Shown here one piece after another: positions 3,474 through 21,131 of a stretch of DNA of 35,439 nucleotides. The translations under genes and the position numbers were made by a program. Under the pieces are notes generated by a model, which was not told where the DNA came from, did not search any database, and saw only the letters and a list, made by a program, of their open reading frames with translations. Source of the stretch: a virus (taxonomy: Duplodnaviria > Caudoviricetes); IMG/VR virus record IMGVR_UViG_3300027806_000094, positions 1 to 35,439 of that record, one strand, 5' to 3'. Position 1 is the first letter of the stretch, and the number at the start of each line of letters is the position of its first letter.

Positions 3474-3848
3474 ATGCACGCGATGAGAAACCGAAAAGCT
3501 GAGCACGTAGATTATGGATTTATGGCCGGCTGGATTGAGGAGAACCCAAAGGCAATGCCGTCGAATATCGATGGCGTCATCGAACGCAACGGGTGCTTTC
3601 TGTGGATGGAATGGAAGCACGGCGGAGAGTCGATGTCGAAGGGTCAGCAGATTCTTCTCTCCAAGCTCGCTCAAGTGGATGACTTTTTTGTAATCGTGAT
3701 TACTGGTTACAGTAACTCCACAGGCAGAGAGGTCAGGGCAATTCAAAAGATTCTCCCCGATGGATACTGGAAGCTCGTCGGAGAGAGCGAGGCCGACTTG
3801 AAAGTCTTAGTCAACAAATTCTACAACTACGCGGAAATGAAATGCTAG
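3474..3848 (+). CDS. PD-(D/E)xK / VRR-NUC-like small nuclease
   Basis: SNIDG...FLWMEWK...SKGQ motif. Overlaps the terL start. Confidence 0.6.
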   Translation: MHAMRNRKAEHVDYGFMAGWIEENPKAMPSNIDGVIERNGCFLWMEWKHGGESMSKGQQILLSKLAQVDDFFVIVITGYSNSTGREVRAIQKILPDGYWKLVGESEADLKVLVNKFYNYAEMKC

Positions 3849-5197
3849 GAGCTGACATCGCAAGCCCTGCGCTGTGGGCACGAAAACGAACCGAAGGCAA
3901 ATTTAAGATACCGCGGCACATCGCATACTTGGATGACCTTATCGTCCGAGCGTTGAACGGGATGGGCTCGAAGCGTATCGTTGTTTCAATGCCACCGCGG
4001 CACGGCAAGAGCTTTTATATTTCAGAGCACTTGCCAGCGTGGTACGTCGGAATGTTCCCGGACAATCAAGTCATCCTCACAAGCTACGAAGCAGAGTTTG
4101 CTGCGGAGTTCGGCGGAAAGGCTCGAGACCTAATCGCCAACGACGAAAACTATCTCGGAGTGCGAGTCGACCCCACGAAGAAGTCGAGCTCGTTCTGGAA
4201 AATCGACGGGCATAGAGGCGGGGTGAAGACGGCAGGTGCTCGCGGTCCAATTACCGGTCGCGGTGCTCACTTGTTCATCATCGATGACCCAATCAAAAAC
4301 TCCGAGGAAGCACAAAGCGAAACGCTTCGAAACAAAAACTGGGACTGGTTTCGGTCCACGGCGTACAGCCGACTTGAGCCCGGAGGGGTGATGGTTGTCG
4401 TACAGACCAGATGGCACATGGATGACCTCGCCGGCCGGATTATCCGAGAGCTAGCGAACGTCGAACCGTGGGAGGTGGTAAGCTTCCCGGCAATCGCGGA
4501 AGAGCATGACGTTTTGGGCCGGGCCCCGGGCGAGCCGCTTTGGCCTGACCGCATTGCACTCCCGCAACTCGAAAACATCCGCGGGACTGTCGGGCCGTTC
4601 TGGTGGTCCGCTCTTTATCAGCAAAGGCCGACGCCGGCGGAAGGCGGGCTCTTTAAGCTCGAATTCTTCAACCAGTTTTACGACGTCTTCCCTCAGGTGG
4701 TGAAGTCCTGCAGGTTCTGGGACTTGGCCGCAACAAAAAATTCGGACTCTGACTTCACTGTCGGGCTGATGCTTTCGCTCTGTGACGACGGGAATTTCTA
4801 CGTCATGGATATTGTTCGCGGTCGATGGGCCCCTTACGAACGCGACCGCATCATTAAACAGGTCGCCCAGCTTGACGGATACAACGTCAAAATCCGCATG
4901 GAAAAAGAGCCCGGGGCCAGCGGTGAGTCGCTGATTGATTCGATGGGCAGGATGCTGACCGGCCACAACTTCCGCGGGATACGCTCGAAAGACAGCAAAA
5001 TGGCCCGCGTGAATTCCATTGACGGTATCGCCAGTGTGGCAGGGGTTGGGCGACTTCGCCTCAGGAAAGGGCATTGGACTCGCGAATTTATCGACGAATT
5101 GATTATGTTTCCTAATGCACAGCACGACGACCAAGTCGATGCCCTGTCAGGTGCGTATAAGGCACTGACCCAAGAAAAAACTGTCTATGTAGCTTAG
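3842..5197 (+). CDS. terL: terminase large subunit
   Basis: Walker A MPPRHGKS, Walker B IIDDP, QTRW coupling motif, LYQQRP, nuclease-domain WDLA and HDDQVDA. Confidence 0.95.
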   Translation: MLGADIASPALWARKRTEGKFKIPRHIAYLDDLIVRALNGMGSKRIVVSMPPRHGKSFYISEHLPAWYVGMFPDNQVILTSYEAEFAAEFGGKARDLIANDENYLGVRVDPTKKSSSFWKIDGHRGGVKTAGARGPITGRGAHLFIIDDPIKNSEEAQSETLRNKNWDWFRSTAYSRLEPGGVMVVVQTRWHMDDLAGRIIRELANVEPWEVVSFPAIAEEHDVLGRAPGEPLWPDRIALPQLENIRGTVGPFWWSALYQQRPTPAEGGLFKLEFFNQFYDVFPQVVKSCRFWDLAATKNSDSDFTVGLMLSLCDDGNFYVMDIVRGRWAPYERDRIIKQVAQLDGYNVKIRMEKEPGASGESLIDSMGRMLTGHNFRGIRSKDSKMARVNSIDGIASVAGVGRLRLRKGHWTREFIDELIMFPNAQHDDQVDALSGAYKALTQEKTVYVA

Positions 5198-5204
5198 GAC
5201 GAAC

Positions 5205-8200
5205 ATGCCAAGTGCAAGTCAAATCGCCGCCGTGATGGCTGAAATGGACAGCCGCAATAAGTCCAGCTCGCCTCAGACTGCAGATAACGTCAAGTCGATG
5301 CCAGCGATGAACCTTACTGGCCTCCGTTCCGCAATGGCGGGCGTGCTCCCGGGCGGATGGTCAAGCGACCACGCAGCGGAAACCGAGAAGTACGCCGGCT
5401 GGCATTACATCGCAATCAACGCAGTGTACAAGCAGGTCATTCAGGCCGGCGTTGAAGTGTACGAGCGTCGGTTGGTTGTTCCGAGTCTACAGAAACCGCA
5501 AGCAGCACCGCCAGCTCCAGTTATGGACGGCCAGCAGCCTGTTCCGCAAATGCCCGGAGGCTTCACGAAGGGCGTAAACGAGCAGCAAGAGAGCATGGTT
5601 GTCATGCCTCACTTCGACCCAGTGATGAAGCGGCTGAAGCGTCCGAACCCGGCTCAAACTCTTTCGGCGTTCAACGGCGAGCGTGCAATTCAGCTTTGCC
5701 TCACAGGCCGGGCAATCACTTGGAACGTTCGCAGCAAGCTCACTGGGAAGATTATCGAGCGATATGTCATCCCGACTTGCCTTGCACAACCACGCCCACC
5801 TTCTCGCGAGCTTCCGCGGGGCGGATGGTATGTTCTGCCGGAAGGGGCCCGGTACGCCAACGAAGCTGGCTTCTACATGACAGGCTCGCTTGAGGCTGCA
5901 TTCGGAAAGACCATCCCAGCTGAAGACGTGCAGGTTATCAAGTTTCCGCACCCGAAATACAAAGACGACGGTCAGTCGCCAATCTCCGCGTCGGCTCTCT
6001 GGACTGACACAAGCGAAATGGTCGACAAGAGCCGGCACAACCACCTGAAAAACGGTCCGGACCCGTCGGTGGTTATCGGTCTGGATGGAGAGGTTGACGA
6101 GACCAGCATTCGCCGCGGTGAAGCAATCTTCAACGAGCGATACGCCGGGGTGGACAAGCACGGGAAAGCGATGTTCGTCACCCCTGCCAAGACGATTACC
6201 CCGCTGACCACAGCTCCAAAGGATATGGCTTACGGGGATGGCTTTACGCAACTCCGGGACGCACAACTCGCGATTCACGGTGTCCCTTTGGCGGCGGTTG
6301 GCTTGACTAGCCCGACAGGACGCGAGGGGCTCTATGCTCCGCTCCTGCAGTTCATCGAGCTCTCGGTACAGCCGATTCTGAAAGTGCTCGGAGACGAGGA
6401 CTCTGCCCTCTACTCAGAGGACGAGGGACGGGAAGTCGAAATCTGCTACACGGCGAAAAAGTTCAACGACGAAGACCTCATCGAAAAGCAAATCCAGACC
6501 GACATCACGGCTGGCGTGCTGACGAAGGGCGAGCTTCGAAAGCTTCGCGGTCGCGAGCCGTTTGGAGACGAGCGTGACGAGGAAATTTGCGGTGCTGCTG
6601 CGGCTCCCGCGGCAATGCCCGGGATGGTTGGGCCAGACGGACAGCCTGTCGGCCCGGATGGAATGCCGATGCCTCAGGGGACAAACCCTGAAGACGCTGC
6701 AGCGATGATGACCAAGCCGACCAAGCAGCCGTTTGGGCGGGCAATGCAGGGCGGAAAGCCGCGGCTCGCTTCCCAGATTGCAAAGGCATTCGCCAAAGAG
6801 CTCGAGAAGTACGGAATCGTGAAGGGCGGGCCCGGCTCAGGAAATCACGGCCACTGTGGCGGGACTCCGGACGACGGCGAGCCGGGAGGCTCTAGGCCAG
6901 CCGAGGAATGCGGCAACACGCCAGCCCAGCCACAAGCCGCCCCAGCGACGCAAACGCCTCCAGCGGCCCAACAGGCCCCTCCAGCAGCCCCACAGGCCCA
7001 GCCGGCAGAGGCCGTTCAGGCACAGCAAAAGCCCGGGCGGTTCTCGGCGGCAAATCCGCACGCTTACGGAATTGACCCACGCCAGCGGAGAATCCTATCG
7101 GAAGAGGCATTCCAGTACGTCTCAGAGCGTATCGGGACTGACCGAGAAAGCGAGCTCGGGAACGGGCCGACGGCAAACGACCGGGAGCGGAAGTTTCTCG
7201 AGGACCGCGGCTGGGTTCCGACGGGCAGTTCGTTGCAGGCTCGCTACCAAGATTTTTTCGCGGAAGAACGAAACGCCGCAATTGCCGCATACTCCGGACG
7301 GGGAGACGCGGCCCGAGCTCGTGCACTTGCCACCGATAACTTTTACGGAATCTCTGCCGAGGAAGCTCAGGCACACTTGGACACGCTTGGTTCAGGTGGA
7401 GAGGCAAGCTACCGAACACGGACACTTATCACGCAGGCAGTTGGAAACTACTCTGCAGAAAACGAGGACGGGGCAAAGTGGCTCGCCAGCACGCTCGCAG
7501 CTCAAGGCCTGAATGAGACTCAGATTGTCCAATCAATCAACCTGATGCGAGCTTCGCAGGGTGGAAACTGGGCTCGGTTTGAGCCCGGAGACGCGGCACG
7601 AATTGCAGTGAACGCACTGGCAGACCCAACAGCCTCGCCTCCGTCACCAACTCCGCCGGCACAGAGCACTGAGAGCCCGGCCGCAGCACCGAAAGAAAAA
7701 ACGAGCCGAGTTGCACCAGAGCCGGTCGACGGCACGCAGTACAAAGAAAACAAGCTCACCAAGGACATCAAAGAACGAGCGGCGAAAGTTTCGTTTGCAG
7801 ACGGCGGTGTGCCAGTAGACGAAGATAAAATCCGAGAAGACCTCGAGCTCGAAGCGGAAGGTGAGTTTCCGGATTACGAGCACGCACCGGAAATCGCTTC
7901 AAGCGTTACCGAAAACATGAGGGAGAGCCTCAATAGCTACAGCGACTTGCCTCGCGATATCCGCACCGAAATAGACAGCTTCCTTGAGACGTTCGGGGAC
8001 GAGTTCACCGAGTCAATCTCAGCAGAAAGGTCTGTTGAACGATTTTGGGAAAACAATGAAAGCGACTTCGAAGACGCGATTAAAGCCGAGGCTGGCGATG
8101 ACGAGGAAAAGCTTTCCGAGTTGACGGCTCGAGCTGAAGAAGTTTTCGACGACTTAAAGCTCGAGGCTCGCAACGCTGCGGAAAAATACGAAAGTGCAAT

Positions 8201-10535
8201 GGACTCTGTTCGTTCAGAGTGGGTGTCGAATTACATCAACGACTACCTCGACGAGCGAGTCGCAGAAGCAAAGGGCGAAAGTGTAGGCTGGGGCTCAATG
8301 GAGCCGAACACTTGGCATTCATCTGACGATGGCTCGAAGCTCAAGCTTGTCACTCGCAGTGGAAATGAATTCCACTTAGAAGTAAATGACGAGCTGTACG
8401 CTGACCACGGGATTAGCGGCAAGGTCGAGAATATGATATTCACCGACAAAAAGGGAAGCATTGAAATCACCGGCCAAGGCCGAGGGGAGCAGTTCGAGGT
8501 GTTTCGCGGAGTGTCTTCTGCATTGCTTGCGAGAATGCAAAACGAAGACATCGATGCCATAGCATACACTGCAATCGAGCCGAACAGGCAAGAGCTTTAC
8601 GACAAGCTGACGCAAACGCTCGCTCAGGTCGACGGAAAGTATGTAGCAGTCGTTACTGGCGGAGGCAGCAACCGCTCCGCAAACTATATCGTTGCTAAGC
8701 GTGAGCACGCGGAAAAGCTTCGAGAGTACATCGACAACTACGACGAGTCTGGCGGGTCCGGTGCAAGCTGGCTCGTCAAGCAATACTTCAACGGCTTCGT
8801 GAAGTCGCACGGCAAGAAGTGGGCCCGGTGGTACGACTACGCCAAGGGCGGAGCTGGCTCTGGAAACTTCGGGCACTGCGGTGGAGACGGAGGCGAAGGA
8901 AATCCGGGTGGCTCGAAGCCTGCAGACGAGTGCGGGACGGGGAAAAAGAAACCAGCAACCAAAAAGCCGTCGGCAAAGAAAGAGACGGCACCTAAAAAAG
9001 GCGGGAAGCTTGTCGACTTAGAAAACCCCGGAACACTCGAGGTTCACCCGGACTCAAAAGAGTACGCTGGAACGAGCGGAATAAAAATCGACGCCAGCAA
9101 GAGCGACGGCAAAGAGTGGAATCACGCTCCTACGGCAGACATCAACAAGTGGAATAAGGAAAACGGTTTTACCCGAAAGGGTGTCGGTAAAGACATCGAC
9201 TTGGTTGATTATGCTAAAAAGCTAGATGAGGCCTACGGCGGGCCGGCACGTCCTTTCCTTGTGGAAGTGCCGAATCCATCAAAAGACAACCCAGACCGGA
9301 TGTCTACTGTAATAAGCAAGGAAAACGTAGAGCGTGCTGCGGTTGCTTTAGCCGACATGGTTGAGAAAGCCGACAAGCACAATCCAGAGTGGGCATTATG
9401 GTACTCGGAGATTAAGGGCATCCGCGACGAATTGTCTGAGGAGAAAGGCAAATTTAATTTCTCCCCGGCGTCCAGAGAACTGCTAAAGACCGACGGAGGG
9501 GCAAAGCTCTTTGTCGGCATTCTAGCGATGACGTCTCAGGAGGGTGCACCAGAGGACAACCTTGTATCAACGCAAAAGATTTACGACCACTACACCGAGC
9601 ACGGAGAACTTCCCGAGGGGAGAACGTGTCGTCAATTGATTGCAGGTAAGGCTGGAATTGCAATTGCAAAAAACATAGAGAAGTACAAAAAAGTCGCCGC
9701 ACACTTCGATGGTGATTTTGCCAAGACATACGACTTCCTGAATAAGCAAGTTCTCGCTAGGGACTTGCATGGCATAATGGCCGAGATGGGAATCGTAAAA
9801 GCAGACGCAAAAGACAAATTCAACCCCGGTGCGTTCGCTGACCAATACGTGCCGATTTCGTTTATCTTCGGTCCAAAGATTGGTGCGTTCCACGGAAATC
9901 TCGGAGAGTTGCCGGGAGTTCTTACTCAAGACCGATGGAACGTTAGAACGTGGGGCCGGCTTACCGGGCAGATTGGATTTACTGAAGAGCAAATCACAAA
10001 TACTTGGGTTGCTGTGACAGAAGCAAAGGACAAGCCAACTGCTGAGCACGTTAAAATTTCCGGCATGAGTGCCCGTGATATGATTTCCGCAGCCAAGCGA
10101 GTTGCTGCCGGGGATGACTTAACTGACAGTGAGTACGTAGGGCTGAATAAGCTTGCCCAAGCTCACGTTTCGTCTGGTAAGGAATCGAAAAACCCAATCA
10201 TCAAAAGAAACGACTTCACCACAAAGCTCAACACCGCGATGAAGAAAATTACGACCGTAGTCGACAGCCCGGGCGGTGCACTCGAAAGATTCGCAAACCA
10301 GCTCGCAGCCGAGACGGCCGTGGAAATTCTAGCCACCCGCGGGAACACGAAAACGGTGAGGGAGGTTCAGGCGTCGGCTTGGATGGTCGAGAAAAAGGCT
10401 TGGTACGACGCAGGAGTCGGCAATAAGCGAGGCGGCGAGAATAGCTATGCGATGGCACTTGAAAAACTGCGATTAAACGGAATCCGGGTAAAAACCAAAA
10501 AAGAACTCGAAGAAGAGGGAACCGGCGACGAATAG
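5205..10535 (+). CDS. portal protein fused to two tagged cargo modules (polyprotein)
   Basis: The N-terminal ~460 aa is an HK97-like portal (LKRPNP, GQSPI, IHGVP, GVLTKGELRKLRGREP). It is followed by a Pro/Met/Gly linker and modules starting at tag copies aa 540 and aa 1214. Confidence 0.85.
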   Translation: MPSASQIAAVMAEMDSRNKSSSPQTADNVKSMPAMNLTGLRSAMAGVLPGGWSSDHAAETEKYAGWHYIAINAVYKQVIQAGVEVYERRLVVPSLQKPQAAPPAPVMDGQQPVPQMPGGFTKGVNEQQESMVVMPHFDPVMKRLKRPNPAQTLSAFNGERAIQLCLTGRAITWNVRSKLTGKIIERYVIPTCLAQPRPPSRELPRGGWYVLPEGARYANEAGFYMTGSLEAAFGKTIPAEDVQVIKFPHPKYKDDGQSPISASALWTDTSEMVDKSRHNHLKNGPDPSVVIGLDGEVDETSIRRGEAIFNERYAGVDKHGKAMFVTPAKTITPLTTAPKDMAYGDGFTQLRDAQLAIHGVPLAAVGLTSPTGREGLYAPLLQFIELSVQPILKVLGDEDSALYSEDEGREVEICYTAKKFNDEDLIEKQIQTDITAGVLTKGELRKLRGREPFGDERDEEICGAAAAPAAMPGMVGPDGQPVGPDGMPMPQGTNPEDAAAMMTKPTKQPFGRAMQGGKPRLASQIAKAFAKELEKYGIVKGGPGSGNHGHCGGTPDDGEPGGSRPAEECGNTPAQPQAAPATQTPPAAQQAPPAAPQAQPAEAVQAQQKPGRFSAANPHAYGIDPRQRRILSEEAFQYVSERIGTDRESELGNGPTANDRERKFLEDRGWVPTGSSLQARYQDFFAEERNAAIAAYSGRGDAARARALATDNFYGISAEEAQAHLDTLGSGGEASYRTRTLITQAVGNYSAENEDGAKWLASTLAAQGLNETQIVQSINLMRASQGGNWARFEPGDAARIAVNALADPTASPPSPTPPAQSTESPAAAPKEKTSRVAPEPVDGTQYKENKLTKDIKERAAKVSFADGGVPVDEDKIREDLELEAEGEFPDYEHAPEIASSVTENMRESLNSYSDLPRDIRTEIDSFLETFGDEFTESISAERSVERFWENNESDFEDAIKAEAGDDEEKLSELTARAEEVFDDLKLEARNAAEKYESAMDSVRSEWVSNYINDYLDERVAEAKGESVGWGSMEPNTWHSSDDGSKLKLVTRSGNEFHLEVNDELYADHGISGKVENMIFTDKKGSIEITGQGRGEQFEVFRGVSSALLARMQNEDIDAIAYTAIEPNRQELYDKLTQTLAQVDGKYVAVVTGGGSNRSANYIVAKREHAEKLREYIDNYDESGGSGASWLVKQYFNGFVKSHGKKWARWYDYAKGGAGSGNFGHCGGDGGEGNPGGSKPADECGTGKKKPATKKPSAKKETAPKKGGKLVDLENPGTLEVHPDSKEYAGTSGIKIDASKSDGKEWNHAPTADINKWNKENGFTRKGVGKDIDLVDYAKKLDEAYGGPARPFLVEVPNPSKDNPDRMSTVISKENVERAAVALADMVEKADKHNPEWALWYSEIKGIRDELSEEKGKFNFSPASRELLKTDGGAKLFVGILAMTSQEGAPEDNLVSTQKIYDHYTEHGELPEGRTCRQLIAGKAGIAIAKNIEKYKKVAAHFDGDFAKTYDFLNKQVLARDLHGIMAEMGIVKADAKDKFNPGAFADQYVPISFIFGPKIGAFHGNLGELPGVLTQDRWNVRTWGRLTGQIGFTEEQITNTWVAVTEAKDKPTAEHVKISGMSARDMISAAKRVAAGDDLTDSEYVGLNKLAQAHVSSGKESKNPIIKRNDFTTKLNTAMKKITTVVDSPGGALERFANQLAAETAVEILATRGNTKTVREVQASAWMVEKKAWYDAGVGNKRGGENSYAMALEKLRLNGIRVKTKKELEEEGTGDE
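6822..6914 (+). repeat. 31-codon tag, copy 1
   Basis: KGGPGSGNHGHCGGTPDDGEPGGSRPAEECG. Confidence 0.95.
8844..8936 (+). repeat. 31-codon tag, copy 2
   Basis: KGGAGSGNFGHCGGDGGEGNPGGSKPADECG. Confidence 0.95.
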
Positions 10536-10539
10536 CCTG

Positions 10540-10567
10540 TAGACTTAACCTGTTTGCGGCGTACAGT
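10540..10567 (+). promoter_or_regulatory. possible sigma70-like internal promoter
   Basis: TAGACT-16 nt-TACAGT in the 53-nt gap, followed by a GAGGAG RBS. Confidence 0.25.
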
Positions 10568-10588
10568 TGCAGGATGAGGAGCTAAAAT

Positions 10589-12343
10589 ATGAGCGAAGAA
10601 CGAAACGAATCACCCAGCATTGAAGTGGCTCTCTGGACGATGAGCGACAGCCAATTTGACGGGTTGCTGGATAAGCTTGTGCAGATGTACAAGTCTGACT
10701 CCAAGACCGAACCAAAGCTAAAAAGCGTTCCCCCCCGGGCGTTTCGCCCCAGCGGTAGGTTTGTAAAGGCCACTCCTGACGAGCCGAAATCCGACTGCGG
10801 GGCCAACGCTCAAGGTGGCGGCGGTTTCCAGCCCGGCAATACCTGTGCGACCGGGGAAGCTGTTGCGGCGACTGCCGGCGGCTCTTCCGCGGCTCAGGGC
10901 GATAAGCCTGACGGCAAGAACGCTTGGCACACCGAGACGAACCCGATTGAGACGCTGCGAAATACCGGCGGCTTCACGTATCACCCGAAGACCGGCAAGA
11001 CCCCGACCGAAGGCTTTGCCGTGTCAATCTTTCCCGAGCAAGAGCGGGTGGTTGACATGGATAAGGTTAGCATGGAGACGGTTGAGAAGTATCGCGACTC
11101 AACCAAAGATGCTTGGGCGAATGATGACAGCGTGTACGTTGGCGGATGGCATAACGCCCAAGGCGACGGCAAGGTCTATCTAGATGCAACAAAAGTATTC
11201 GACTCTAAAGCGGAGGCAATCGCAGCTGGAAAAGAAAAGGGCCAGCTCGCGGGATACGACATCAAGACTGGCGAAGTCTTTGAAATCCAGACCGCTGAAG
11301 AGCGTGATGCTTGGATGAAGCGTCAGGTGGAAATGGCAACAAACGGCATCCGTCAGGAGAAAGCTGTACCTTCGCCAACCGGAGCTGGAGAGTACAATCC
11401 GTTCGTAGAGCAAGACGGAGACGGAAACGGCGTTACAGACGCGGCTCGTGTTGGCGTGCCGGCGATGGCTGTTCCTCCTCCTCCGGAAGTTCCGCGGCTC
11501 CCGAACCTCAACCAAGAGGAGCGGCACGTTGAAGAGCGGTTCGCCCGGACCTTCGAAAGCTTTCCTGATGAAATGGCGAACGCTTACGCGGAAATGGTCA
11601 AGAACTCGGATAAGCCAAACACGTTCGAGACTGACGCAGCGAAAAAACTCAGCTCAGCTTGGAACGATTCGGACCTCGACAAGCGTGCAGAGAAGCGAGC
11701 CCGCTATAATCTGTCGCTTCACCAAACAGCCAACGCGATTGCGAAGCGGGCGTTTGAGAAGCACGTCGCGTCATTGCCTGCCGGAAGCGACATTCTCGTT
11801 ACTGTTGGCGGTTGCGGGGCCGGCAAAGGCTACGCTCAGAAAAACGTCCCCGAAGTTGCACCGCTCGCCGGGGCAGCTGGAGCTGTCTGGGATTCAGCTG
11901 GAGACCAGAACGCAACTGAGAACCCGTGGATTCAAAGCCTTGCTGAAAAGCACGGGCACAAGGTCACGTACGTTTTCGTTCACGCCGACCCGTACGTTTC
12001 TTGGGCCGACCCGGAACGCGGGGTGGTGAAGCGTGCAAACGACCCTTCGGACGGCCGGATGGTCGACGCTTCTGTTTTTGCTGATTCTTATGGAATTGGC
12101 GGAAAGAATCATTACAATTTTTACAACCAAAACAAGAATAACCCTGCAGCAAAGTTCGTGTTTATTGATTCGACGAAAGGCAAGCCGAAGCTTGTTAGTG
12201 AGTTTCCGAAAGAGGCGATTCAAGTGGACCGAAAGCAGTTGCGAGATTTTGCCGCTGCAACTGTTGCGAACAGGCAAAGCGTTGCACCACGGGTAAAGCG
12301 TGGGGCGTTGGTTGGAACACGAATTTGGGGAGGTAACAAGTAA
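10589..12343 (+). CDS. two-module cargo protein with a C-terminal zeta-toxin-like P-loop kinase
   Basis: LVTVGGCGAGKG P-loop, AVWDS, VTYVFVHAD and KRAxxxxxGRMV motifs. N-terminal Cys-pair motif and an unknown GGFT...GGW...KVYLD domain. Confidence 0.7.
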   Translation: MSEERNESPSIEVALWTMSDSQFDGLLDKLVQMYKSDSKTEPKLKSVPPRAFRPSGRFVKATPDEPKSDCGANAQGGGGFQPGNTCATGEAVAATAGGSSAAQGDKPDGKNAWHTETNPIETLRNTGGFTYHPKTGKTPTEGFAVSIFPEQERVVDMDKVSMETVEKYRDSTKDAWANDDSVYVGGWHNAQGDGKVYLDATKVFDSKAEAIAAGKEKGQLAGYDIKTGEVFEIQTAEERDAWMKRQVEMATNGIRQEKAVPSPTGAGEYNPFVEQDGDGNGVTDAARVGVPAMAVPPPPEVPRLPNLNQEERHVEERFARTFESFPDEMANAYAEMVKNSDKPNTFETDAAKKLSSAWNDSDLDKRAEKRARYNLSLHQTANAIAKRAFEKHVASLPAGSDILVTVGGCGAGKGYAQKNVPEVAPLAGAAGAVWDSAGDQNATENPWIQSLAEKHGHKVTYVFVHADPYVSWADPERGVVKRANDPSDGRMVDASVFADSYGIGGKNHYNFYNQNKNNPAAKFVFIDSTKGKPKLVSEFPKEAIQVDRKQLRDFAAATVANRQSVAPRVKRGALVGTRIWGGNK

Positions 12344-12546
12344 TGGCGAAAGAAAAAGACCCGCTTGTCGATGAGGCTTATGAGGCGTTTCGAGCTGAGG
12401 AGCAAAAGTACCAAGACGGACTGGACAAGCTCGCACGAGAAAGCGGATTTTTCGTTGACTGCGACGAAGAGATTTTTCCTTTGAACGACGACGGCTCAGC
12501 GAAGAAAGACAAGGGCGAGAAGAGTGACGACCTTAAAATCTTCTAG
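12343..12546 (+). CDS. small acidic protein, candidate antitoxin/immunity protein
   Basis: 67 aa, TAATG coupling to the zeta-like gene, GGAGG RBS. Confidence 0.55.
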   Translation: MAKEKDPLVDEAYEAFRAEEQKYQDGLDKLARESGFFVDCDEEIFPLNDDGSAKKDKGEKSDDLKIF

Positions 12547-14128
12547 TCATTGGCTGGGCTTAATCAAGGGTGGGCCGGGTTCCGGCAACCACGGGCATTG
12601 CGGCGGTCAAGGAGGACCCGGCAATCCCGGCGGCTCGTCGTCGGCGGGCGAGTGCGGCACGTCAACCGCAAAGCCAGATAACGCAACCGCTCTTAGCGAC
12701 GAGTTCTTTGATTGGCTCGAGGACTACTTGGCAGGCCGCTCGGAAGTTGACTTGAGTCAGTGGTGGAGGCACCGCGGCGACAAGGAATACGAATTGCGTG
12801 CCATTGGCACGAATGCTATTGCGAGTAACGTTTCGAGGATGTCGACAGCGGCAACAGACAAGCTTACTCGAGAGTTTGATTTAGGATTGTCGTTCTGGGG
12901 TAGGCACAAGCAAGGAATCAGCAACGGCCTCGAGAGCTACTACCAGAACGCTTTCGAGCTGGTGAGCAGCGGAATTGCTGAGGACTATAAAGACAAAAGC
13001 TTGGGCGATGTTTTTCTCGACACGGTAGAGCGCAGCATAGCCGACGGGCACTGGGCTCGCTTTGGAATCTCAAAAGAGAACGAAATCAATCTAATTTTGG
13101 CTCTTTCGGAACGAGCAGCTCAGTCAATCGATTTTAGAGAACTTGAGGCCCGCGACTTTTGGGCTAAAAGCCAAGGCAAGATTGACTTGAATGATATTCG
13201 TCACGGCGGAAGGGCTGCTGCTTCTAAGGATATTCAAGGCTTGCAGCCTGTAATGGAATCATTGATGGAAGCTCGGGCTCGTCATTTAATGGGCACGGAA
13301 GCTAACTTCGATGACGCAAAGGAAAACTTTCGAGCTTATTGGAGGAGCTGGCTTAATGACTCTCAAAGTCCACTTGGTCACTGGATGGCACACGTCGCCT
13401 CGAAAGAGCTTGGTGCACCATCGATAATGCGTGGACGTGAGTACGACGTATCAATCGATGGAAATTATTCTGGAGTCAAGGATTTTCTAAACAGAAATCA
13501 AGGCGGCGTACGCATCGACGATATTGCAGACACCAACTACAAAACAGACGCAGCGATGGTTAAGGCAACTTGGGAGGTAGCTCAATTAGCACTTCGAGAT
13601 GAGCCAGAAAGCATGGTACTGTTTCGAGGTATCAAGCCGAGAGAGGACAGTGAAGTCGACTTCACAGTGAAAGAGGATGAGAATCTAATGTTCAAGACAG
13701 ACATTACTATCGAATCGTCTGCACTTCAAAGCTCTTCAACGAAATTCAGTGCTGCTTCTCAGTTTGGGAAAATTGACCGCGACCATCCTTTATCGGAAGA
13801 GATTCGAAGTTTAATTGACAGCCGAGACGATTACGGCAAAAAAATGGACTTCACTGAGCCGACGATGGTTATCGGTGCTGACATCCCGAAATCAAGAATT
13901 TTTTCGGTTCCGTCATACGGTGCAAACGACGCGGGAGAGGAGGAGTATGTAATTATGGGCGGAGACTGGGACAAGAATGCTAAAGTGTACTTGATTGGTC
14001 TTGGAAATGGCGACCGTCTTAGCGAGCAAGATGCAGAGAAGTTTATTAAGTGGAACGCAACGCAAGACAGGAAAAAGCGAGCTGAAGTCGACAAGTGGGC
14101 AGTAAGCACCAGAAAAGGCGGGAAGTAG
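12524..14128 (+). CDS. tagged cargo protein with a C-terminal R-S-E ADP-ribosyltransferase (DraT-like)
   Basis: Tag at aa 15. LFRG, QSSST and IPKSRI...GEEEYVIMGG motifs. Confidence 0.75.
   Translation: MTTLKSSSHWLGLIKGGPGSGNHGHCGGQGGPGNPGGSSSAGECGTSTAKPDNATALSDEFFDWLEDYLAGRSEVDLSQWWRHRGDKEYELRAIGTNAIASNVSRMSTAATDKLTREFDLGLSFWGRHKQGISNGLESYYQNAFELVSSGIAEDYKDKSLGDVFLDTVERSIADGHWARFGISKENEINLILALSERAAQSIDFRELEARDFWAKSQGKIDLNDIRHGGRAAASKDIQGLQPVMESLMEARARHLMGTEANFDDAKENFRAYWRSWLNDSQSPLGHWMAHVASKELGAPSIMRGREYDVSIDGNYSGVKDFLNRNQGGVRIDDIADTNYKTDAAMVKATWEVAQLALRDEPESMVLFRGIKPREDSEVDFTVKEDENLMFKTDITIESSALQSSSTKFSAASQFGKIDRDHPLSEEIRSLIDSRDDYGKKMDFTEPTMVIGADIPKSRIFSVPSYGANDAGEEEYVIMGGDWDKNAKVYLIGLGNGDRLSEQDAEKFIKWNATQDRKKRAEVDKWAVSTRKGGK
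12566..12658 (+). repeat. 31-codon tag, copy 3
   Basis: KGGPGSGNHGHCGGQGGPGNPGGSSSAGECG. Confidence 0.95.
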
Positions 14129-14130
14129 AA

Positions 14131-16698
14131 GTGGCAAAGAAAGCTTGGGCATTTCCGACAGAATCATTCGAGCAGGAGCGTAAGCGAAAAAAGAAGTCGC
14201 ACGCCAAAGGGTTCGCTGCTTGGATGGGGATTGTCAAAGGCGGTCCCGGCTCGGGCAATCATGGACATTGCGGTGGAGAAGGCGGAGATAATAATCCGGG
14301 CGGGAGCAAGCCGGCTAGCGAGTGCGGTGGCGAGCAGAGTGCTGAAGAAAGAGGTGGCGAGAAGTTCGAGGCGGTTGGAGGAACAAGTAATCACGAGTAC
14401 GCAAAACTCGGCCCGGACGAAGAGTACAAGGAAGCACTGAGCAAGAACAAGCAAGACAAGTTCGGTTCCCATCGAAGCCTCGAGCCCGGAACGCCGGTTG
14501 CACTGCGGATTGATATTCCCGCATACAACAGCACTGGGAAGTACGTCGTGACGGTGCACAAGTACACCGGAGGGAAAAGTGTCGGCACTCCAATTGGATA
14601 TGACTCGATTGTGAGATTGTCCGGAGAGGTTGTGTTTGCCTCCAACGAAAAAGGTGCGGAGACAATCCTGACAGGAGAGAGCAATAAGTATCCGCTTGCC
14701 ACGGTGAAAGGGAAGTTCGAGACCTCTCGTGAGTTGCCTGAAGACTTCGAGGACTGGACCCCGGTTGGCTACAACCCGAAGACCGCGGCTTACTTTTACG
14801 ACAAGCGAACTGGCGACGAGATAACCGGCGGAGAGGATGCAATCTCTGTTGGTAACACGGTTTTTATTCGAGTCCCGGATATCGGGGAGCGAAACGCGAA
14901 GCGACGTTACAAGGCCTTTTCTAGATGGATGGGGCTTACGAAAGGCGGGCCCGGCTCGGGAAATTACGGCCACTGTGGCGGTACTGGAGGGAAAGACAAC
15001 CCCGGCGGAAGTCGCCCAGCGGGCGAGTGCGGCCTGAGCGGGCAGACAGAGCCAATGGAGGTCCCGGAGTTTGCCGAGAGCTCGCGGGACTTGAAAAAGC
15101 TCGGGGAGGATGAAGAGTGGGATGATGTATCTGGAACTAGAAGGGTCACTGTATTTCATTTCAGCCGAGAGGACAGGTCCCAGACGGGATTGAAGCGGGG
15201 TTTTGCCGGAACGGCCGCTGCAGGCGAAGAGCGGGCCTCTATGGAGTACGAGAACGGCCGGCTGAAAACAGAGAGTGCGGTGATTCACGCTTACCTGTAC
15301 GGGGCGAAGAGAGAGAAGGTTGTCCCGGGCAAGGTGATGCACAAAATTGAAGCGACGATGTCGGTGCTGGATGTCGGCAGCGATATCTACCAAGGCATTC
15401 TCGACGAGGCACAGAAAGAGGCTTACGCGACCGGACGGCCGAAGCTGGCTATCGCACGCGAGCAAGCGAGGATTCGAGGGTACGATGCCCTCGTCTCGCA
15501 GCGTCACGGGATTATGCAGATTCTCCGCGATATCTCCCCAAAAGAGATAACAGTGATGACTCGCGAAGGTGAAATCGGATACGAAATCAAAGCTTCCGAC
15601 GACTACATTCAAAAAAACGAGCAGGAGCAAAAGAGATATCACGACAGTGCCATAAGCTACTTTAGTAGCGGCCGTGCCGGTGAATTGACGATGGCTTACG
15701 TCAGGGACGCCATGACTCTTGACGGAATCTTGAATCAAATGATTGCGGATGAGCGGGTTAAAATGCCGCTTGCAACTGCAGGTGAGATTCAGGATAGAAT
15801 TCTGCAGAAGCAAAGCCCGGAAGATATCTCGGCAGTGAAAAGTGCTCTTGAATCTCACCTCGAAAAAGTGACAGACAAAGACGCAGCCGAAGAGTACGCG
15901 AGAAAGCTGAAGTACGGAATAGTCTCTGGAAAAACGAAAGAGCAGCTCATTGAAGAAGGGTGGGAGCAGCGAGTTGACTTGCTTAAAAAATCAAAACTTG
16001 CTATTCGAGTTCCTGTTTCCGTCGTGAACAAAGTGTTTGACGACCAAAGAATGAAGAGCCAGTTTGAAACTGGTTCTTCGCAGGGTGCTCTAAATGACAA
16101 AATGCGGAGAGATTTTGAGAAGGGGTCGATGGGTGTTCCTTGGAAAATAGAGGACAGCAAAAGGCCAATTTACGGATACGTTAGCGACGAGCATGGATTG
16201 CACGATAACAGCTCGCTAAGACACTACGGGCACGTTGCTTTCATTCTGAAGGAAGGATTGAAAGACCGAACTACCGTTACATTTGGAGACTCGCTCGACC
16301 ATCGACTTCCGGCGAGTATGTACAGGGACCCGAAGCAATACTCTGTTGCCCCTGCTGAGTTCGGCGAGGTGACGCTGAAAACAAGCTTGTACACTGAAGC
16401 TCAAATTCACGGCGGAGTCAGCATGAACGACGTTGAGGATATAATCGTCAGCGAGCAAGTGTTGGTGGATGCAAGAAAAGACCGGTTTGATTCGTTTGCC
16501 GAGCTCATTGAAAACGCATCGTTCTACTCAATCGATGTGAAGGTTGCCGTCAATAAATCAGGGCGGATAAAGAAAACAAGCGTCGCTGAGTATTTGAATT
16601 CAGTGAAGGATATTTACATCGCTTCGTCTTCTGAGCCGGAAGGCACAAGGCGGGCGATTGAAGAGGTAATCAAGTTGTCAAGTAAAAATAGAGGGTAA
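14131..16698 (+). CDS. multi-module cargo protein with two tags and a C-terminal DUF3626-like domain
   Basis: SQFETGSSQG, RPIYG, YG, TFGDS and YTEAQIHG motifs. Start is GTG 14131 or 14095 (same frame). Confidence 0.75.
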   Translation: MAKKAWAFPTESFEQERKRKKKSHAKGFAAWMGIVKGGPGSGNHGHCGGEGGDNNPGGSKPASECGGEQSAEERGGEKFEAVGGTSNHEYAKLGPDEEYKEALSKNKQDKFGSHRSLEPGTPVALRIDIPAYNSTGKYVVTVHKYTGGKSVGTPIGYDSIVRLSGEVVFASNEKGAETILTGESNKYPLATVKGKFETSRELPEDFEDWTPVGYNPKTAAYFYDKRTGDEITGGEDAISVGNTVFIRVPDIGERNAKRRYKAFSRWMGLTKGGPGSGNYGHCGGTGGKDNPGGSRPAGECGLSGQTEPMEVPEFAESSRDLKKLGEDEEWDDVSGTRRVTVFHFSREDRSQTGLKRGFAGTAAAGEERASMEYENGRLKTESAVIHAYLYGAKREKVVPGKVMHKIEATMSVLDVGSDIYQGILDEAQKEAYATGRPKLAIAREQARIRGYDALVSQRHGIMQILRDISPKEITVMTREGEIGYEIKASDDYIQKNEQEQKRYHDSAISYFSSGRAGELTMAYVRDAMTLDGILNQMIADERVKMPLATAGEIQDRILQKQSPEDISAVKSALESHLEKVTDKDAAEEYARKLKYGIVSGKTKEQLIEEGWEQRVDLLKKSKLAIRVPVSVVNKVFDDQRMKSQFETGSSQGALNDKMRRDFEKGSMGVPWKIEDSKRPIYGYVSDEHGLHDNSSLRHYGHVAFILKEGLKDRTTVTFGDSLDHRLPASMYRDPKQYSVAPAEFGEVTLKTSLYTEAQIHGGVSMNDVEDIIVSEQVLVDARKDRFDSFAELIENASFYSIDVKVAVNKSGRIKKTSVAEYLNSVKDIYIASSSEPEGTRRAIEEVIKLSSKNRG
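14236..14328 (+). repeat. 31-codon tag, copy 4
   Basis: KGGPGSGNHGHCGGEGGDNNPGGSKPASECG. Confidence 0.95.
14941..15033 (+). repeat. 31-codon tag, copy 5
   Basis: KGGPGSGNYGHCGGTGGKDNPGGSRPAGECG. Confidence 0.95.
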
Positions 16699-16703
16699 AT
16701 TGT

Positions 16704-16913
16704 ATGCTGATTGCTACTCGAGGGAATGACAAACTGTTTCTTGAGCACGAGAGCGAGGGGAAGCGAGTTGGGCGGATTGAGCTCGAAGACGGCGTTGTCG
16801 TAAATAATGTAAACGTAGACTCTGTTCTTGCCCGCGGATACTGGGAGGAGGCTCCGAATCCACGGTCGGTCAAGTCACTAAATATCCAGCGACGTCCGGC
16901 GAGTGAAAAGTGA
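16704..16913 (+). CDS. small protein, candidate immunity protein for the DUF3626-like module
   Basis: 69 aa, starts 5 nt after the cargo gene, contains VDSVLARGYWE. Confidence 0.55.
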   Translation: MLIATRGNDKLFLEHESEGKRVGRIELEDGVVVNNVNVDSVLARGYWEEAPNPRSVKSLNIQRRPASEK

Positions 16914-17497
16914 ATCCACAAAATCGGCCGGAATACGAAAAGCAGATGCTCGCAAAAGTAAGCTCGATTGCCGAGCGTTGCTGTTGTGCAGAAAGAGATG
17001 AGCAGAAGATTGACTGTTTCGAGCTGATGGACCTCGAGGACTTAATGCTCGAGATTGCCGAAGCCGCCTACGAGGCATTGCTGGTTCAGTTGGATATTCG
17101 CACTATCCCGCGAATGCCTATTTCTGAGGTTGACGACTTTCTGCGGCAGATTGCTTTAAGAATGATTGAGCTGTCGACCGAAAATAAACTGGACGAGGCT
17201 TGGGCGAACACGGCCGCGGTTACGATTGTGACCCGGCTCTGGACTATCGGCGAGGGGCTGGCTGTCCGGCACGCCAAAACTCGGGTCACTCAGTACAAGT
17301 CACTGCCAATGGGCCTGCTTTACCTATACGCGGAAGCTTCAAAGCGGCGTAAAATCGTGAGCGTGTGGACAACGGAGGCCGGGCCGTGCGAGCTCTGTGC
17401 GGCTCTCAGTGGCTCATTGATTGATGACATTATTAACAACGGCCCTCCAGCCCACCCGCGGTGTCGATGTCACTTAGAGCATACGGTGATTGAGTGA
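16910..17497 (+). CDS. MuF / SPP1 gp7-like minor head protein
   Basis: C-terminal W...CELC..L.G...PPAHPRCRC signature, located between portal and protease. Confidence 0.8.
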   Translation: MNPQNRPEYEKQMLAKVSSIAERCCCAERDEQKIDCFELMDLEDLMLEIAEAAYEALLVQLDIRTIPRMPISEVDDFLRQIALRMIELSTENKLDEAWANTAAVTIVTRLWTIGEGLAVRHAKTRVTQYKSLPMGLLYLYAEASKRRKIVSVWTTEAGPCELCAALSGSLIDDIINNGPPAHPRCRCHLEHTVIE

Positions 17498-18066: not shown

Positions 18067-18363
18067 GTGATGGACTTGGATGGGAAGATAGTTTGGCCCG
18101 ACAAACTTGAGATTCATACGACCACGAAGATTCTCGGCTCTCGTCAAATGCGAGAGGCGGTGGCGTATATCAAATCCGCAAAGCACCCTGTCGTCATCAT
18201 GCAGCTCAACAGCGATGACTCGGTGAAGCAATACTACTACAACGGGGCTTGGGTGCAGCCGAAGACTCGCCTTTGCTATTTCGACGCGGTGAGCGCCATA
18301 ATCAGGCACAAGAATCTTTCGCTGGTAATCCCCGAATTCTTTACATTCATTGTAAAGCAATGA
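18067..18363 (+). CDS. hypothetical protein
   Basis: Starts 3 nt after the previous gene. No motif recognised. Confidence 0.5.
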   Translation: MMDLDGKIVWPDKLEIHTTTKILGSRQMREAVAYIKSAKHPVVIMQLNSDDSVKQYYYNGAWVQPKTRLCYFDAVSAIIRHKNLSLVIPEFFTFIVKQ

Positions 18364-18410
18364 CGCGGTGGGTGACTGATTCGCCTACATTTAATCGCGG
18401 GAGACCAGCT

Positions 18411-19829
18411 GTGAGCAAAGAAAACAACAACTTATCAATGACTGGCGGAACTATTTCTCTGCCACAGATAGGCTACGTTGTCGACGTTGACTCGAGCAAA
18501 ATGACCGCTTCGGCAATCATTTCGACTCCTGCCGTGGACCGTGTCGGGGACTCAATGGACCCGCTCGGTTGCGACCTTGCCCAGTACCGGCTCAACCCGG
18601 TTGTGTTCTGGAATCATGCCTTCGATGGGTTTACCAAACCGATTGGCATTTCAGAAGACAAGGAAACTGGTAAGCTTGAGATTTACCCCACCAGCGAAAA
18701 CATCAAAGCGACCTGTCACTTCACGAATAAGTTTCTGGAAGCCGAACAGATTTTTGAGCTGGTGAACGAGAAGACCATCCGGGCGACTTCGATTCGGTTT
18801 GACCCTATCGGCTCGCCCAGTCGGGTCAATGGCGTCCAAAGGTTCAACAAGTGGTATCTGCTTGAGTGGTCATGGGTGCCGATTGGGTGCAATCCCGAGG
18901 CGGTCCAAGACGTGATTGCAAAAGGCTATCTCGCCGGCCGCAGAATCTCAGCTGGTATCGCGAAGTCTCTGGAGCTTGTAATCCCTGAACGCAAGCTGCA
19001 GGTTCCGGGTTACAGCACGAAGAGAGACACAAAAATGCGGTTTGCAAAAGCCTGTGACGACAAGATGAAGTGCGACTGTGAAGAGGGCGACGCTCTCGGA
19101 GGTCAAGTGAAAAAGCAAGACGAAGAAATGAAACGACCCGGCGACGCTCCCCCCCCGGGGACCAAGCCCGGTGCCGCACCTCCTGCAGCAGCCGCTCCTC
19201 CGGCCGCTCCCGGGAAAAGCCCTGACGTTGCCGCTGCAGCTCCCGGCCAAAGCCCGGACACAGCCGCTGACCCAGAAGGCGAAATGAAGAACAACGGCGG
19301 AGAAGAGACGCCAAAGCCTTATGGGGCACAGCTGGTCGAAGCCGCTTACAACGCACTCAACGAAGTCCGGGTAAACATCCAAGAGGGTGCAACCACTCTC
19401 GAGAACCCGGAAATCGAGGCTCTTATCGCGACCACGCTCGAAGCATTGTCGACGATGATGGGTAAGGTTGAAGACACGTATGCGAAGGCTTACGTGCAGA
19501 ACCCGAAGTACAACTACACTCCACTTGTATCGAACGGACGCCGGCTTGACTGGCACGAGAAGCTGAAATCGTTTCTCGCCTCTGGGGCACGCAATCGATT
19601 CGCAACGAGTGGAATTGCAGAACGAATCAAGTCAGTTGTCCAGTCCGGAAATATCCGCGGGCGGGAGGCTGAAATTCTGAAGTCCTGTGCACAACAGCTG
19701 CAGAATTTTGTTGAACAGTCTCGCTCCGACGTGAGGACCGAGGGTGACGGTGTCGTGAGTGAACGGCTGGAGACTATCACAAAATCGTCTCAGGCTACGC
19801 TCGACTTTCTGAAGGCGTTCAAACGCTAA
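18411..19829 (+). CDS. HK97-family prohead protease with a C-terminal scaffold-like extension
   Basis: ISTPAVDRVGD, NPVVFWNH, PIG, ATSIRF and LLEWSWVPIGCNPEA motifs, then a Pro/Ala linker and a helical region. Start placed at GTG 18411 after GGGAG. Confidence 0.9.
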   Translation: MSKENNNLSMTGGTISLPQIGYVVDVDSSKMTASAIISTPAVDRVGDSMDPLGCDLAQYRLNPVVFWNHAFDGFTKPIGISEDKETGKLEIYPTSENIKATCHFTNKFLEAEQIFELVNEKTIRATSIRFDPIGSPSRVNGVQRFNKWYLLEWSWVPIGCNPEAVQDVIAKGYLAGRRISAGIAKSLELVIPERKLQVPGYSTKRDTKMRFAKACDDKMKCDCEEGDALGGQVKKQDEEMKRPGDAPPPGTKPGAAPPAAAAPPAAPGKSPDVAAAAPGQSPDTAADPEGEMKNNGGEETPKPYGAQLVEAAYNALNEVRVNIQEGATTLENPEIEALIATTLEALSTMMGKVEDTYAKAYVQNPKYNYTPLVSNGRRLDWHEKLKSFLASGARNRFATSGIAERIKSVVQSGNIRGREAEILKSCAQQLQNFVEQSRSDVRTEGDGVVSERLETITKSSQATLDFLKAFKR

Positions 19830-19847: not shown

Positions 19848-21131
19848 ATGTCGAACATTGAACAAAAGCTTCAGGCGGTCGAGAAGACTCAAGCCGCCAT
19901 TCTCGAGACCCTCAAGAGTCTCGACCAGCCCAACTACCGAGTTGTCGGTGGTGACGGTGGCGTCGCAGTCTCTTACATCGAAGAGGGTGGGCCTCAGGAC
20001 GTCGTTCGAATCGACAACCTGTGGTCACGCGGCGAGAACACGATGAAGAACTTCCGCAAGAACTCGTACCTCCCCGGGTACAAGGGTGCGAAGGAAGGCG
20101 GCTTCAAGTCTTTCGGCGACTTCCTGTTGACCGGTCTCCGGGACTCGAAGTCTGCAGAGTGGCAAAATCGTCACGCCAGCTGCTACAAGGCAGTTCAAGG
20201 CATGTCGGTTGGCGCAGCTGAAGACGGCGGGTACATGGTGCAGCCCGAATACTCCGACCGGATGTTGGAGCGGGTCTACAACAACAAGATTTTCTCGATG
20301 ACCGACAATTACACTGTCGCCGGCAACAACTTGGTTTTCATGCGGAACGCTGAAACCAGCCGTGCAAACGGAAGCCGCAAGGGCGGTATCCGCGGATACT
20401 GGCTGGGTGAAGGCCAGACCGGCACCAAGTCCGCACCGAAGATGCGACAGGTTCAGCTCCGCCTGAAGAAGCTCTGCATTTTGGTTTACCTGACAGAAGA
20501 GCTCATTTCGGACGGTGGCACTGCTGTCCAGTCATACGTCGAAAAGTGTGCAGCCGAGGAATTCAACTTCCTCATCGGCGATGCAATCTTCAACGGAACT
20601 GGAGTCGGCCAGCCTCTGGGCATCTTGAATTCGGGCTCTTTGGTGAACATCACCAAGGAATCCGGACAGGCCGCAAGTACCATCGTCGCAGCAAACATCG
20701 ACAAGATGTGGGCTCGCCGGTACGCTGCAGCTGACGGATACAGCTGGTTCCACAACCAAGACTGCGGACCTCAACTCGATTCGTTGAGCCAAGCAATCGG
20801 CACCGCTGGTATCGCCCTGTACCGTCCGAGTAACGGGCTTGCTGGCAACGCTCCTCAATTACTGAAGACCGCTCCTCGCGTTGAGACTGAGTTTAACTCT
20901 ACCGTCGGAACCGTTGGCGACATCCTGCTGGCCGACTTGAGTCAAGTTTTGTCTATCACCAAGGGCGGTGTCAGCCAGATGGCCTCGACTCACGTCGAGT
21001 TCCTTACCGACCAGACAGCATTGAAGTTCACCATGCGTCTTGACGCTCGCCCTTGGGACGACACTCCGCTGACCCCTTACAAAGGTTCCAATACTCAGTC
21101 CAGTTTCGTCGCCCTTGAGACCCGCGCCTAA
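19848..21131 (+). CDS. major capsid protein (HK97 fold)
   Basis: Motifs EDGGYMVQPE, WLGEG, TEELISD, IFNGTGVGQPLGILN and FLTDQTALKFTMRLD. N-terminal delta-like domain. Confidence 0.95.
   Translation: MSNIEQKLQAVEKTQAAILETLKSLDQPNYRVVGGDGGVAVSYIEEGGPQDVVRIDNLWSRGENTMKNFRKNSYLPGYKGAKEGGFKSFGDFLLTGLRDSKSAEWQNRHASCYKAVQGMSVGAAEDGGYMVQPEYSDRMLERVYNNKIFSMTDNYTVAGNNLVFMRNAETSRANGSRKGGIRGYWLGEGQTGTKSAPKMRQVQLRLKKLCILVYLTEELISDGGTAVQSYVEKCAAEEFNFLIGDAIFNGTGVGQPLGILNSGSLVNITKESGQAASTIVAANIDKMWARRYAAADGYSWFHNQDCGPQLDSLSQAIGTAGIALYRPSNGLAGNAPQLLKTAPRVETEFNSTVGTVGDILLADLSQVLSITKGGVSQMASTHVEFLTDQTALKFTMRLDARPWDDTPLTPYKGSNTQSSFVALETRA

Follow-up and report, generated by a model that had tools for sequence, protein, structure and literature searches.

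Portals of tailed phages are dodecamers whose C-terminal crown lies inside the capsid. Effectors fused to portals and to MuF proteins, and the phage polyvalent proteins, have been described (PMC5512222, PMC9503650, PMC3482391), and Iyer et al. 2017 (PMC5512222) list PBECR, 2H, InPase, Nudix and ADP-ribosyltransferase (ART) domains as portal partners. In T4 the internal proteins and Alt carry a capsid targeting sequence (CTS) that is cut by gp21 (PMC9026906, PMC9958956), CTS fusions provide a precedent for the ejection of unfolded cargo (PMC9026906), and fusion of the portal to green fluorescent protein (GFP) was tolerated at only about half of its 12 positions (PMC9958956). In SPN3US/phiKZ, AXE is the motif at which gp245 cuts capsid, portal and ejection proteins (PMC10052503), and in HK97 the cut is at K103/S104 (PMC10275583). 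Here we describe a portal gene that continues without a stop into two large modules, each opening with a short shared peptide, the tag, in a 35,439-nucleotide stretch of Caudoviricetes DNA (IMG/VR record IMGVR_UViG_3300027806_000094, positions 1 to 35,439), referred to below as the window. The window is a linear virus record with an estimated completeness of 42%, and its sequence is present in freshwater, lake and 'fungus metagenome' runs. The fusion is accompanied by a second and more telling finding, namely a shared tag whose preceding residue is matched to the head protease of the phage. The parts of the portal frame are as follows, in window coordinates.

5205..10535, + strand: portal-cargo polyprotein of 1776 aa, ~193 kDa; a single open frame, with the same build in 8/8 clusters
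5205..5294, + strand: N-terminal leader, aa 1-30, ending K[SA], a predicted propeptide; K30 then S or A in 7/8 aligned proteins
5580..6590, + strand: HK97-type portal core, aa 126-462; PF04860, phrog_12 and, below its cut-off, TIGR01537
6591..6824, + strand: Pro/Gly/Met-rich linker and conserved pre-tag leader, with predicted cut sites K527 before A and K540 before G; both Lys in 8/8
6825..6914, + strand: tag 1, GGPGSGNHGH with a Cys-pair extension, aa 541-570; by motif
7041..7640, + strand: module 1 N-terminal region, aa 613-812; 22-42% identity in six more distant relatives
7740..8294, + strand: module 1 acidic helical region, aa 846-1030, net charge -31; predicted all-helical
8295..8774, + strand: module 1 alpha/beta domain, aa 1031-1190, weakly GNAT-like by structure search
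8775..8846, + strand: junction 2, with predicted cut sites K1200 before S and K1214 before G; conserved in 8/8
8847..8936, + strand: tag 2, GGAGSGNFGH with a Cys-pair extension, aa 1215-1244; DNA identity to the related locus L004 breaks at its last codons
9318..10421, + strand: module 2, a predicted helix-hairpin-helix (HhH)-GPD DNA-glycosylase-like domain (DUF7178-like); AlphaFold2 model with a mean predicted local distance difference test (pLDDT) of 74, and structure search

Each module opens with Lys and then a tag of the form GG[PA]GSGNxGH, GGPGSGNHGHCGG after K540 for tag 1 and GGAGSGNFGHCGG after K1214 for tag 2, and three more copies head modules in open reading frames (ORFs) 12524 and 14095 of the window. 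The copies in the window are 64-73% alike in DNA and conserved in protein. That the tag is not specific to portals, occurring on these three further modules and in many other phages, had been overlooked in the original prediction made from this sequence. Pattern scans of IMG/VR returned 105 stretches in which Lys precedes the tag, 164 in which the first base of the preceding codon is not A (43 of 64 parts covered) and 6 with ANY codons, the codons ACR, ATR and AGR lying outside the scans; flanking DNA was taken for up to 80 stretches per scan. A scan of species genomes gave 47 stretches from Clostridia, Chloroflexota, a proteobacterial bin, an archaeal bin and others, although in four of them the translation lacks the tag. 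From the contigs with flanks a single locus each was used, which together with the window and the portal relatives made a set of 103 loci, 101 of them tagged, with 250 tags, and head genes were labelled by local profiles seeded on Pfam-annotated representatives. Tags sit on portals, MuF proteins, proteases and free cargo genes, among head genes wherever these were called, and inside the portal frame itself in 26 of the 63 tag loci with a called portal. Only three of 23 portal-borne tagged modules scanned have a Pfam family (topoisomerase IB, zeta kinase and Ntox50), and 20 have none. Within one genome both portal tags are of the same flavour, Cys-pair in three proteins and canonical GRPG in five, despite the low DNA similarity of the window's copies; rather than having been copied recently, the tags may thus be under selection to match a partner specific to each genome. 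A tblastn search of GenBank phages with the tag returned nothing, the query being short and of low complexity, so that this is not evidence of absence. We note that the IMG/VR loci L015 and L028 have 10 and 11 tags per contig, and carry many small genes with a shared leader of 10-15 residues that ends in Lys just before the tag and resembles the T4 CTS.

Comparison across these loci indicates that the residue before the tag tracks the phage's own head protease group. It is of one class in 68/68 multi-tag loci, where shuffling gave a mean of 14.8 and a maximum of 26, and its class matches the protease group in all 64 loci with both a tag and a called protease. Lys is found with S78-like (16 loci) or XkdF (8) proteases, Asp with DUF2213 group a (23), and Leu, Ala, Asn or His with DUF2213 group b (17), and concordance is complete after collapse at 45% protease identity to 15 clusters. 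The window protease was identified by PHROGs only and is itself one of the S78 seeds; a DUF2213 protein is annotated as a head maturation protease in RefSeq phages. Inspected by eye, capsid leaders end in the same class of residue as that before the tag, with K then A in 10/10 HK97-type capsids, D then S, G or A in 14/14 of the PF09950 type, and N, L or A in 11/11 of the DUF6260 type, and the capsid leader of the window ends CYK114 then A. Seven loci (L125, L134, L149, L152, L153, L156 and L169) have Glu, Phe or Leu before the tag and no recognised protease; these are candidates for further head protease families.

The 1776-aa frame itself is confirmed as real and is not a misassembly. Positions 5205-10535 (+) hold 1776 codons with zero internal stops, and the claim in the original prediction that a portal extends into this frame is borne out by the open frame, by a match to Pfam Phage_portal PF04860 at aa 138-449 (E 4e-22, 79.2 bits against a cut-off of 39.1) and by bridging contigs. 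The portal core had been said to end near ELRKLRGREP, which lies at aa 443-452 with PF04860 running to aa 449, and the low-complexity linker and two tagged modules said to follow it are present with their limits as placed, the tags starting after K540 and K1214. Continuity was checked in Logan contigs, not raw reads, of four runs, leaving out runs X15-X22 (small or no shares). Contigs cross the junctions without gaps in three runs that carry no flag as a possible source of the record, X8 (5691-8554), X9 (6252-12933) and X14 (5409-7331), the last from a strain ~5% diverged in which a compensated +1/-1 pair at 9435/9440 preserves the frame; contigs of X12 are fragmentary over the frame. Three of the four viral relatives found with the portal core are fusions of 1734, 1807 and 1835 aa, and the fourth, L007 (39% portal identity), is broken by frameshifts and is described only. 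A profile search with the end domain of module 1, covering proteins of 313-2000 aa with 7,999 candidates scored, gave eight clusters, all of them portal fusions of 1691-1841 aa and one the window's own. The portal and two-module build is thus found in seven further protein clusters, and comparison with the relatives' portal C-termini, which had been proposed as a check, finds both tags in 8/8 aligned portal-fusion proteins. Values of dN/dS (the ratio of nonsynonymous to synonymous substitution rates) between the window and L004 are 0.02-0.13 in every computable segment, module 2 being saturated, and all segments measurable against L004 thus appear to be under purifying selection.

It is highly improbable that the frame yields separate proteins through internal starts or a frameshift, the outcome named beforehand as refuting the fusion, or that it is an assembly artefact. 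The linker does contain in-frame ATGs, the continuity check used contigs only, and each of four genomes has a single XXXYYYZ heptamer in the stretch from crown to tag 1, although its sequence and place vary by lineage. No Shine-Dalgarno-like or other ribosome-binding start was found near either tag, and no slippery site conserved across lineages, short portal gene or conserved internal start was seen. The frame is not an assembly artefact because gap-free contigs come from independent runs and the proteins are fused in 8/8 clusters.

The portal gene lies directly after the large terminase gene, and is followed by cargo-like genes, a small MuF-like gene, the head protease gene and an HK97-fold capsid gene; it is the single portal among the 27 ORFs scanned, a count limited to the window and hence to a record ~42% complete. 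The portal core is 79-99% identical in relatives, and no solved structure was matched by sequence for either capsid or portal. The eighth aligned protein in the K30 comparison is annotated from a later start. Pro, Ala, Gln and Gly make up 53% of the linker at aa 463-540 and 69% of aa 541-612. K527, K540, K1200 and K1214 are invariant in 8/8 aligned proteins, with Ala, Gly or Ser as the next residue, and these junction lysines persist while module 1 drops to 18-64% identity in six members. Farther upstream, portal aa 96-122 (5490-5570) form a Pro/Gln-rich insert that ends in K122 then G or S and is conserved in 8/8, a possible nicked loop.

The long portal is a further member of the known portal-effector theme. 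It resembles the effectors of Iyer 2017/2022, which are enzyme domains on portals or among head genes and are proposed to be packaged and injected, and also the polyvalent proteins, as it joins at least two unrelated effector-type domains (portal, weakly GNAT-like and HhH-like) in a portal-terminase head module; the fold of module 2 is common to polyvalent proteins, and one relative has ART-PolyVal behind the tag. The 1776-aa protein has no Pfam match to MPTase, ART-PolyVal, PBECR, InPase or LPD. Unlike here, processing is ascribed in the Iyer excerpts to fused metallopeptidases, and these excerpts name no shared tag or head-protease site; 'glycosylase' has no occurrence in the main text of PMC5512222. 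In T4 a short shared leader and a protease site precede variable cargo, which is taken into the head, trimmed and later ejected, and the arrangement predicted at each tag is similar; but the CTS is removed and is N-terminal on separate proteins, whereas the window tag would stay on the cargo and lies within polyproteins, with the portal as carrier. The window tag thus seems to work like the T4 CTS without being a member of that class, since it lies after the predicted cut. SPN3US is like the window in using one protease motif for capsid, portal and cargo, and differs, as described, in that its portal loses an N-terminal propeptide, has no C-terminal cargo or tag after the cut, and is cut at Glu, not Lys. 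Faecalibacterium phage FP_Brigit gp30 (NC_047909; L316 3710-6196) is an 829-aa portal with extra domains, beside MuF and a DUF2213 protease, and has Asp before a tag-like peptide, as D then FNEADHPR, preceding its last domain. It belongs to another portal family, has another tag (of the HPR...G.F type) and carries Nudix-box cargo; it is annotated only as a portal protein. In the open-access texts searched we did not find the tag described, nor its match to four protease groups, nor an HhH domain as portal cargo.

Module 2 is predicted to adopt an HhH-GPD DNA-glycosylase-like fold. Its AlphaFold2 model, built from an alignment of 5 sequences, has a two-lobed helical fold with a helix-hairpin-helix, and the first 25 ranks of a wide structural search are taken by DNA glycosylases of the HhH type and chains related to them, the best with Z 9.8, a root-mean-square deviation of 3.7 and 193 aligned residues; unrelated rows begin at Z 5.5. 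K1558, the lysine of GPKIG, and D1576, 18 residues on, are invariant in 8/8 and in the distant relative P0002, which was the one relative returned by a single-sequence search; their spacing matches that of the catalytic pair K120/D138 of EndoIII. Module 2 is thereby like the HhH-GPD glycosylases (EndoIII, OGG, MagIII, MutY) and Pfam DUF7178 in predicted fold and in having Lys and Asp 18 apart, and unlike these glycosylases in its ~10% sequence identity, large helical inserts, fusion to a portal and lack of a visible Fe-S motif. Atlas gives PF23802 (DUF7178) at 0.95, and BFVD gives polyvalent and ART-PolyVal protein domains at E 3e-11; the open-access search found no literature on DUF7178. Among cultured phages there is one weak match, in Limnohabitans phage DC33 (E 3e-5), and Pfam, PHROGs and NCBIfam have no family for either module. 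Module 2 is exchanged between lineages. L004 is 99% identical to the window in the portal and 47% in module 2, with DNA identity falling from 93% to ~40-60% where tag 2 ends (8935) and recovering where the next tag lies (10763), whereas P0007 is 81% identical in the portal and 92% in module 2; other breaks between the window and L004 (~7800, 13600, 15600) lie away from tags.

The end domain of module 1 is weakly GNAT-like in its predicted structure. In a two-domain model it aligns (VIA-align Z 6.1-6.9) with GNAT-fold chains including Mom of phage Mu, 8bv8; its non-helical matches are GNAT-type folds (Foldseek E 1.7e-3 to 6e-2), nothing was found by Foldseek against PDB at E<=0.001 for the module 1 model, and Atlas DUF6934 at 0.89 is a lead only. 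The acidic helical region has only generic helical-bundle structural matches, and Pfam has no match for the N-terminal region, aa 613-812. Matches of the modules to ParM and PRK04164 were rejected as below cut-off. Single-sequence searches with the end domain (88-282 aa) returned no relatives; a distant free-standing relative is present in a metagenome (L315), and the sizes of families given here are lower bounds. In L314 (~1500-1800) a module-1 homologue ends abruptly, an apparent ribosomal protein L19 gene comes next, and this contig is probably chimeric.

We consider it probable that the modules are portal-borne head cargo, cut from the portal by the phage's own Lys-specific protease before each tag and injected with the DNA as early effectors, and we infer that cleavage is more likely than injection. 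The portal would, as in T4 (PMC9958956), nucleate the prohead with its crown inside, enclosing the C-terminal chain with its modules, and a co-packaged protease would then cut after Lys at the capsid leader, at the portal leader (K30), at K527/K540 and at K1200/K1214. The products would be a ~55-kDa portal and modules of ~74 and ~61 kDa starting with the tag, at most 12 of each and ~1.6 MDa in all. Modules of this size could not escape through the shell, and their ejection would be in unfolded form. As a glycosylase or lyase, module 2 would have DNA bases as its substrate, the acyl acceptor for module 1 would be a host protein or DNA, and the tag would be an N-terminal handle left on the cargo as a retention or ejection signal. 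Proteolytic release, put forward in the original prediction as probable, gains support from the comparison of loci, in which the residue preceding the tag follows the family of head protease; the up to 12 copies that it placed next to the exit channel are an upper bound, and once cut, the modules might lie elsewhere in the head. Because the T4 portal tolerated GFP fusions at about half of its positions, cutting the modules loose would ease the steric problem. A broader version, which we hold only tentatively and think rather doubtful, is that GGPGSGNxGHxGRPG is a universal cargo address, a protease-unmasked N-terminus threading cargo through portal and tail whatever the portal, capsid and protease families, with the preceding residue reading out protease specificity (Asp for one DUF2213 group, for instance) and the portal serving as a 12-fold rack that injects a glycosylase and an acyltransferase as infection begins.

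Several points weigh against the account of protease-cut, injected cargo. The lineages are not independent, as protease, portal and capsid types are co-inherited, so that few evolutionary events stand behind the 64/64 count. Separate patterns were used to sample the residue classes, of which the Leu/Ala/Asn/His class is broad and was defined once the data had been seen. There is no called protease in 37 of the 101 tag loci, which are fragments and loci of the Glu and Phe/Leu types, and in L161 and L167, both of DUF2213 group b, the tag is preceded by Leu and the capsid leader ends in Asn. The motif hydrophobic-x-K then [GSA], chosen post hoc, is weakly enriched in the window (p 0.02-0.11) and is found also inside the portal core (K441), where it is conserved in 8/8 and a cut is unlikely; cuts are therefore not predictable from sequence alone. 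As to the modules, Z<7 makes the GNAT assignment weak, Pfam gives no direct match for module 2 and Foldseek none in PDB at E<=0.001, and for a helical model its Z of 9.8 is modest.

The modules might also be cut but not injected, staying in the head or acting in the producer cell, scaffold-like or in DNA repair during packaging. The acidic helical region does resemble scaffold material, a glycosylase could serve the phage's own DNA, no sheath gene is recognised in the window, and proteins of 60-70 kDa must unfold to pass the tail. We nonetheless think this unlikely, with tagged cargo elsewhere that includes ART-PolyVal, zeta kinase and Ntox50, typical host-directed effectors, with the fast turnover of module 2 between lineages, and with T4 CTS cargo that is ejected and refolds (PMC9026906). 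There is a still smaller chance that the modules stay on the portal crown and modify or repair the passing DNA. Phage DNA hypermodification involves HhH as well as Mom-like folds, the structural neighbours include the amino-acid:DNA transferase PaMx11 gp46 for module 2 (Z 7.4) and Mu Mom for module 1 (Z 6.9), and both domains are kept on the portal in 8/8 relatives; yet the unit of K and tag is also found at the start of free cargo genes and of modules carried by MuF and protease, double Lys sites are conserved at both junctions, and in T4 bulky C-terminal fusions are reported as not tolerated on all 12 subunits (PMC9958956).

A different reading makes the tag mainly a DNA homology box for cassette swaps, with the preceding residue reflecting descent and not proteolysis. 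The window-L004 break at the end of tag 2 with its return at the next tag, and the P0007 module that is closer to the window than its portal, would fit such swaps. The window copies, however, have diverged in DNA yet are conserved in protein, other identity breaks fall away from tags, the capsid leaders share the residue, and exchange at tags is compatible with protease-cut, injected cargo as well, so that we give the homology box a very slim chance.

The remaining head and cargo genes of the window are listed here.

3842..5197, + strand: large terminase; Pfam and PHROGs
10589..12343, + strand: cargo gene with a second tag type and a P-loop; motif and PHROGs
12524..14128, + strand: cargo gene with K and tag at 12566 and a weak ADP-ribosyltransferase (DRAT) match below cut-off; motif and Pfam
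14095..16698, + strand: cargo gene with two copies of K and tag (14236, 14941), and L5 gp82-like (below cut-off) and DUF3626 domains; motif and Pfam
16910..17497, + strand: small MuF-like head protein; PF04233 at E 0.12 and a local MuF profile
18249..19829, + strand: head maturation protease with a long C-terminal tail, the predicted releasing enzyme; phrog_80 at E 4e-11, S78 by local profiles
19848..21131, + strand: HK97-fold major capsid protein, predicted cut at K114 before A; PF05065 from aa 127, TIGR01554

ORF 10589 has a P-loop, GGCGAGKG, at aa 407-414 in its C-terminal half and a phrog_3170 match in its N-terminal half; its identification as a zeta kinase is not supported (pairwise E 0.014). 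The second tag type, K[AS]...[DQ]CG...GGGGF[QE]PGN[TD]C, lies at 10763-10850 as K, A...DCG...GGGGFQPGNTC and is present also in L004, L005, L006, L007 and L313. In the frameshifted L007 it occurs three times, once right after the portal, so the tags and cargo attached to the portal may differ among relatives. Where window 12524-16698 has the DRAT-like and L5 gp82-like modules, L013 (9571-12756) has a tagged ART-PolyVal module, and the cassettes behind the same tags thus differ in content. Small ORFs of 67 aa (12343-12546) and 69 aa (16704-16913), without Pfam match, directly follow cargo genes and could be inhibitors or chaperones of the cargo. The protease gene has no match in Pfam, and its true start is probably near 18360, because its relatives are of 485-489 aa; it encodes a Pro/Ala-rich stretch and a helical tail with six hydrophobic-x-K then [AS] sites, like a fused scaffold.

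Protein loading and ejection by tailed phages are known for a few models, T4, P1 and SPN3US. If the account given here is true, the tag and its protease-matched residue would allow head cargo and mature cut products to be predicted from sequence, and head proteases that are still unstudied (DUF2213, XkdF) would gain specificities open to testing. Delivery of an HhH glycosylase by a portal would add a cargo class to those listed by Iyer et al. 2017, and the long portal bears on the size of the C-terminal load that a 12-mer portal tolerates. The tag would also point to a large pool of unnamed early effectors, as illustrated by the portal-borne modules scanned that fall in no Pfam family.

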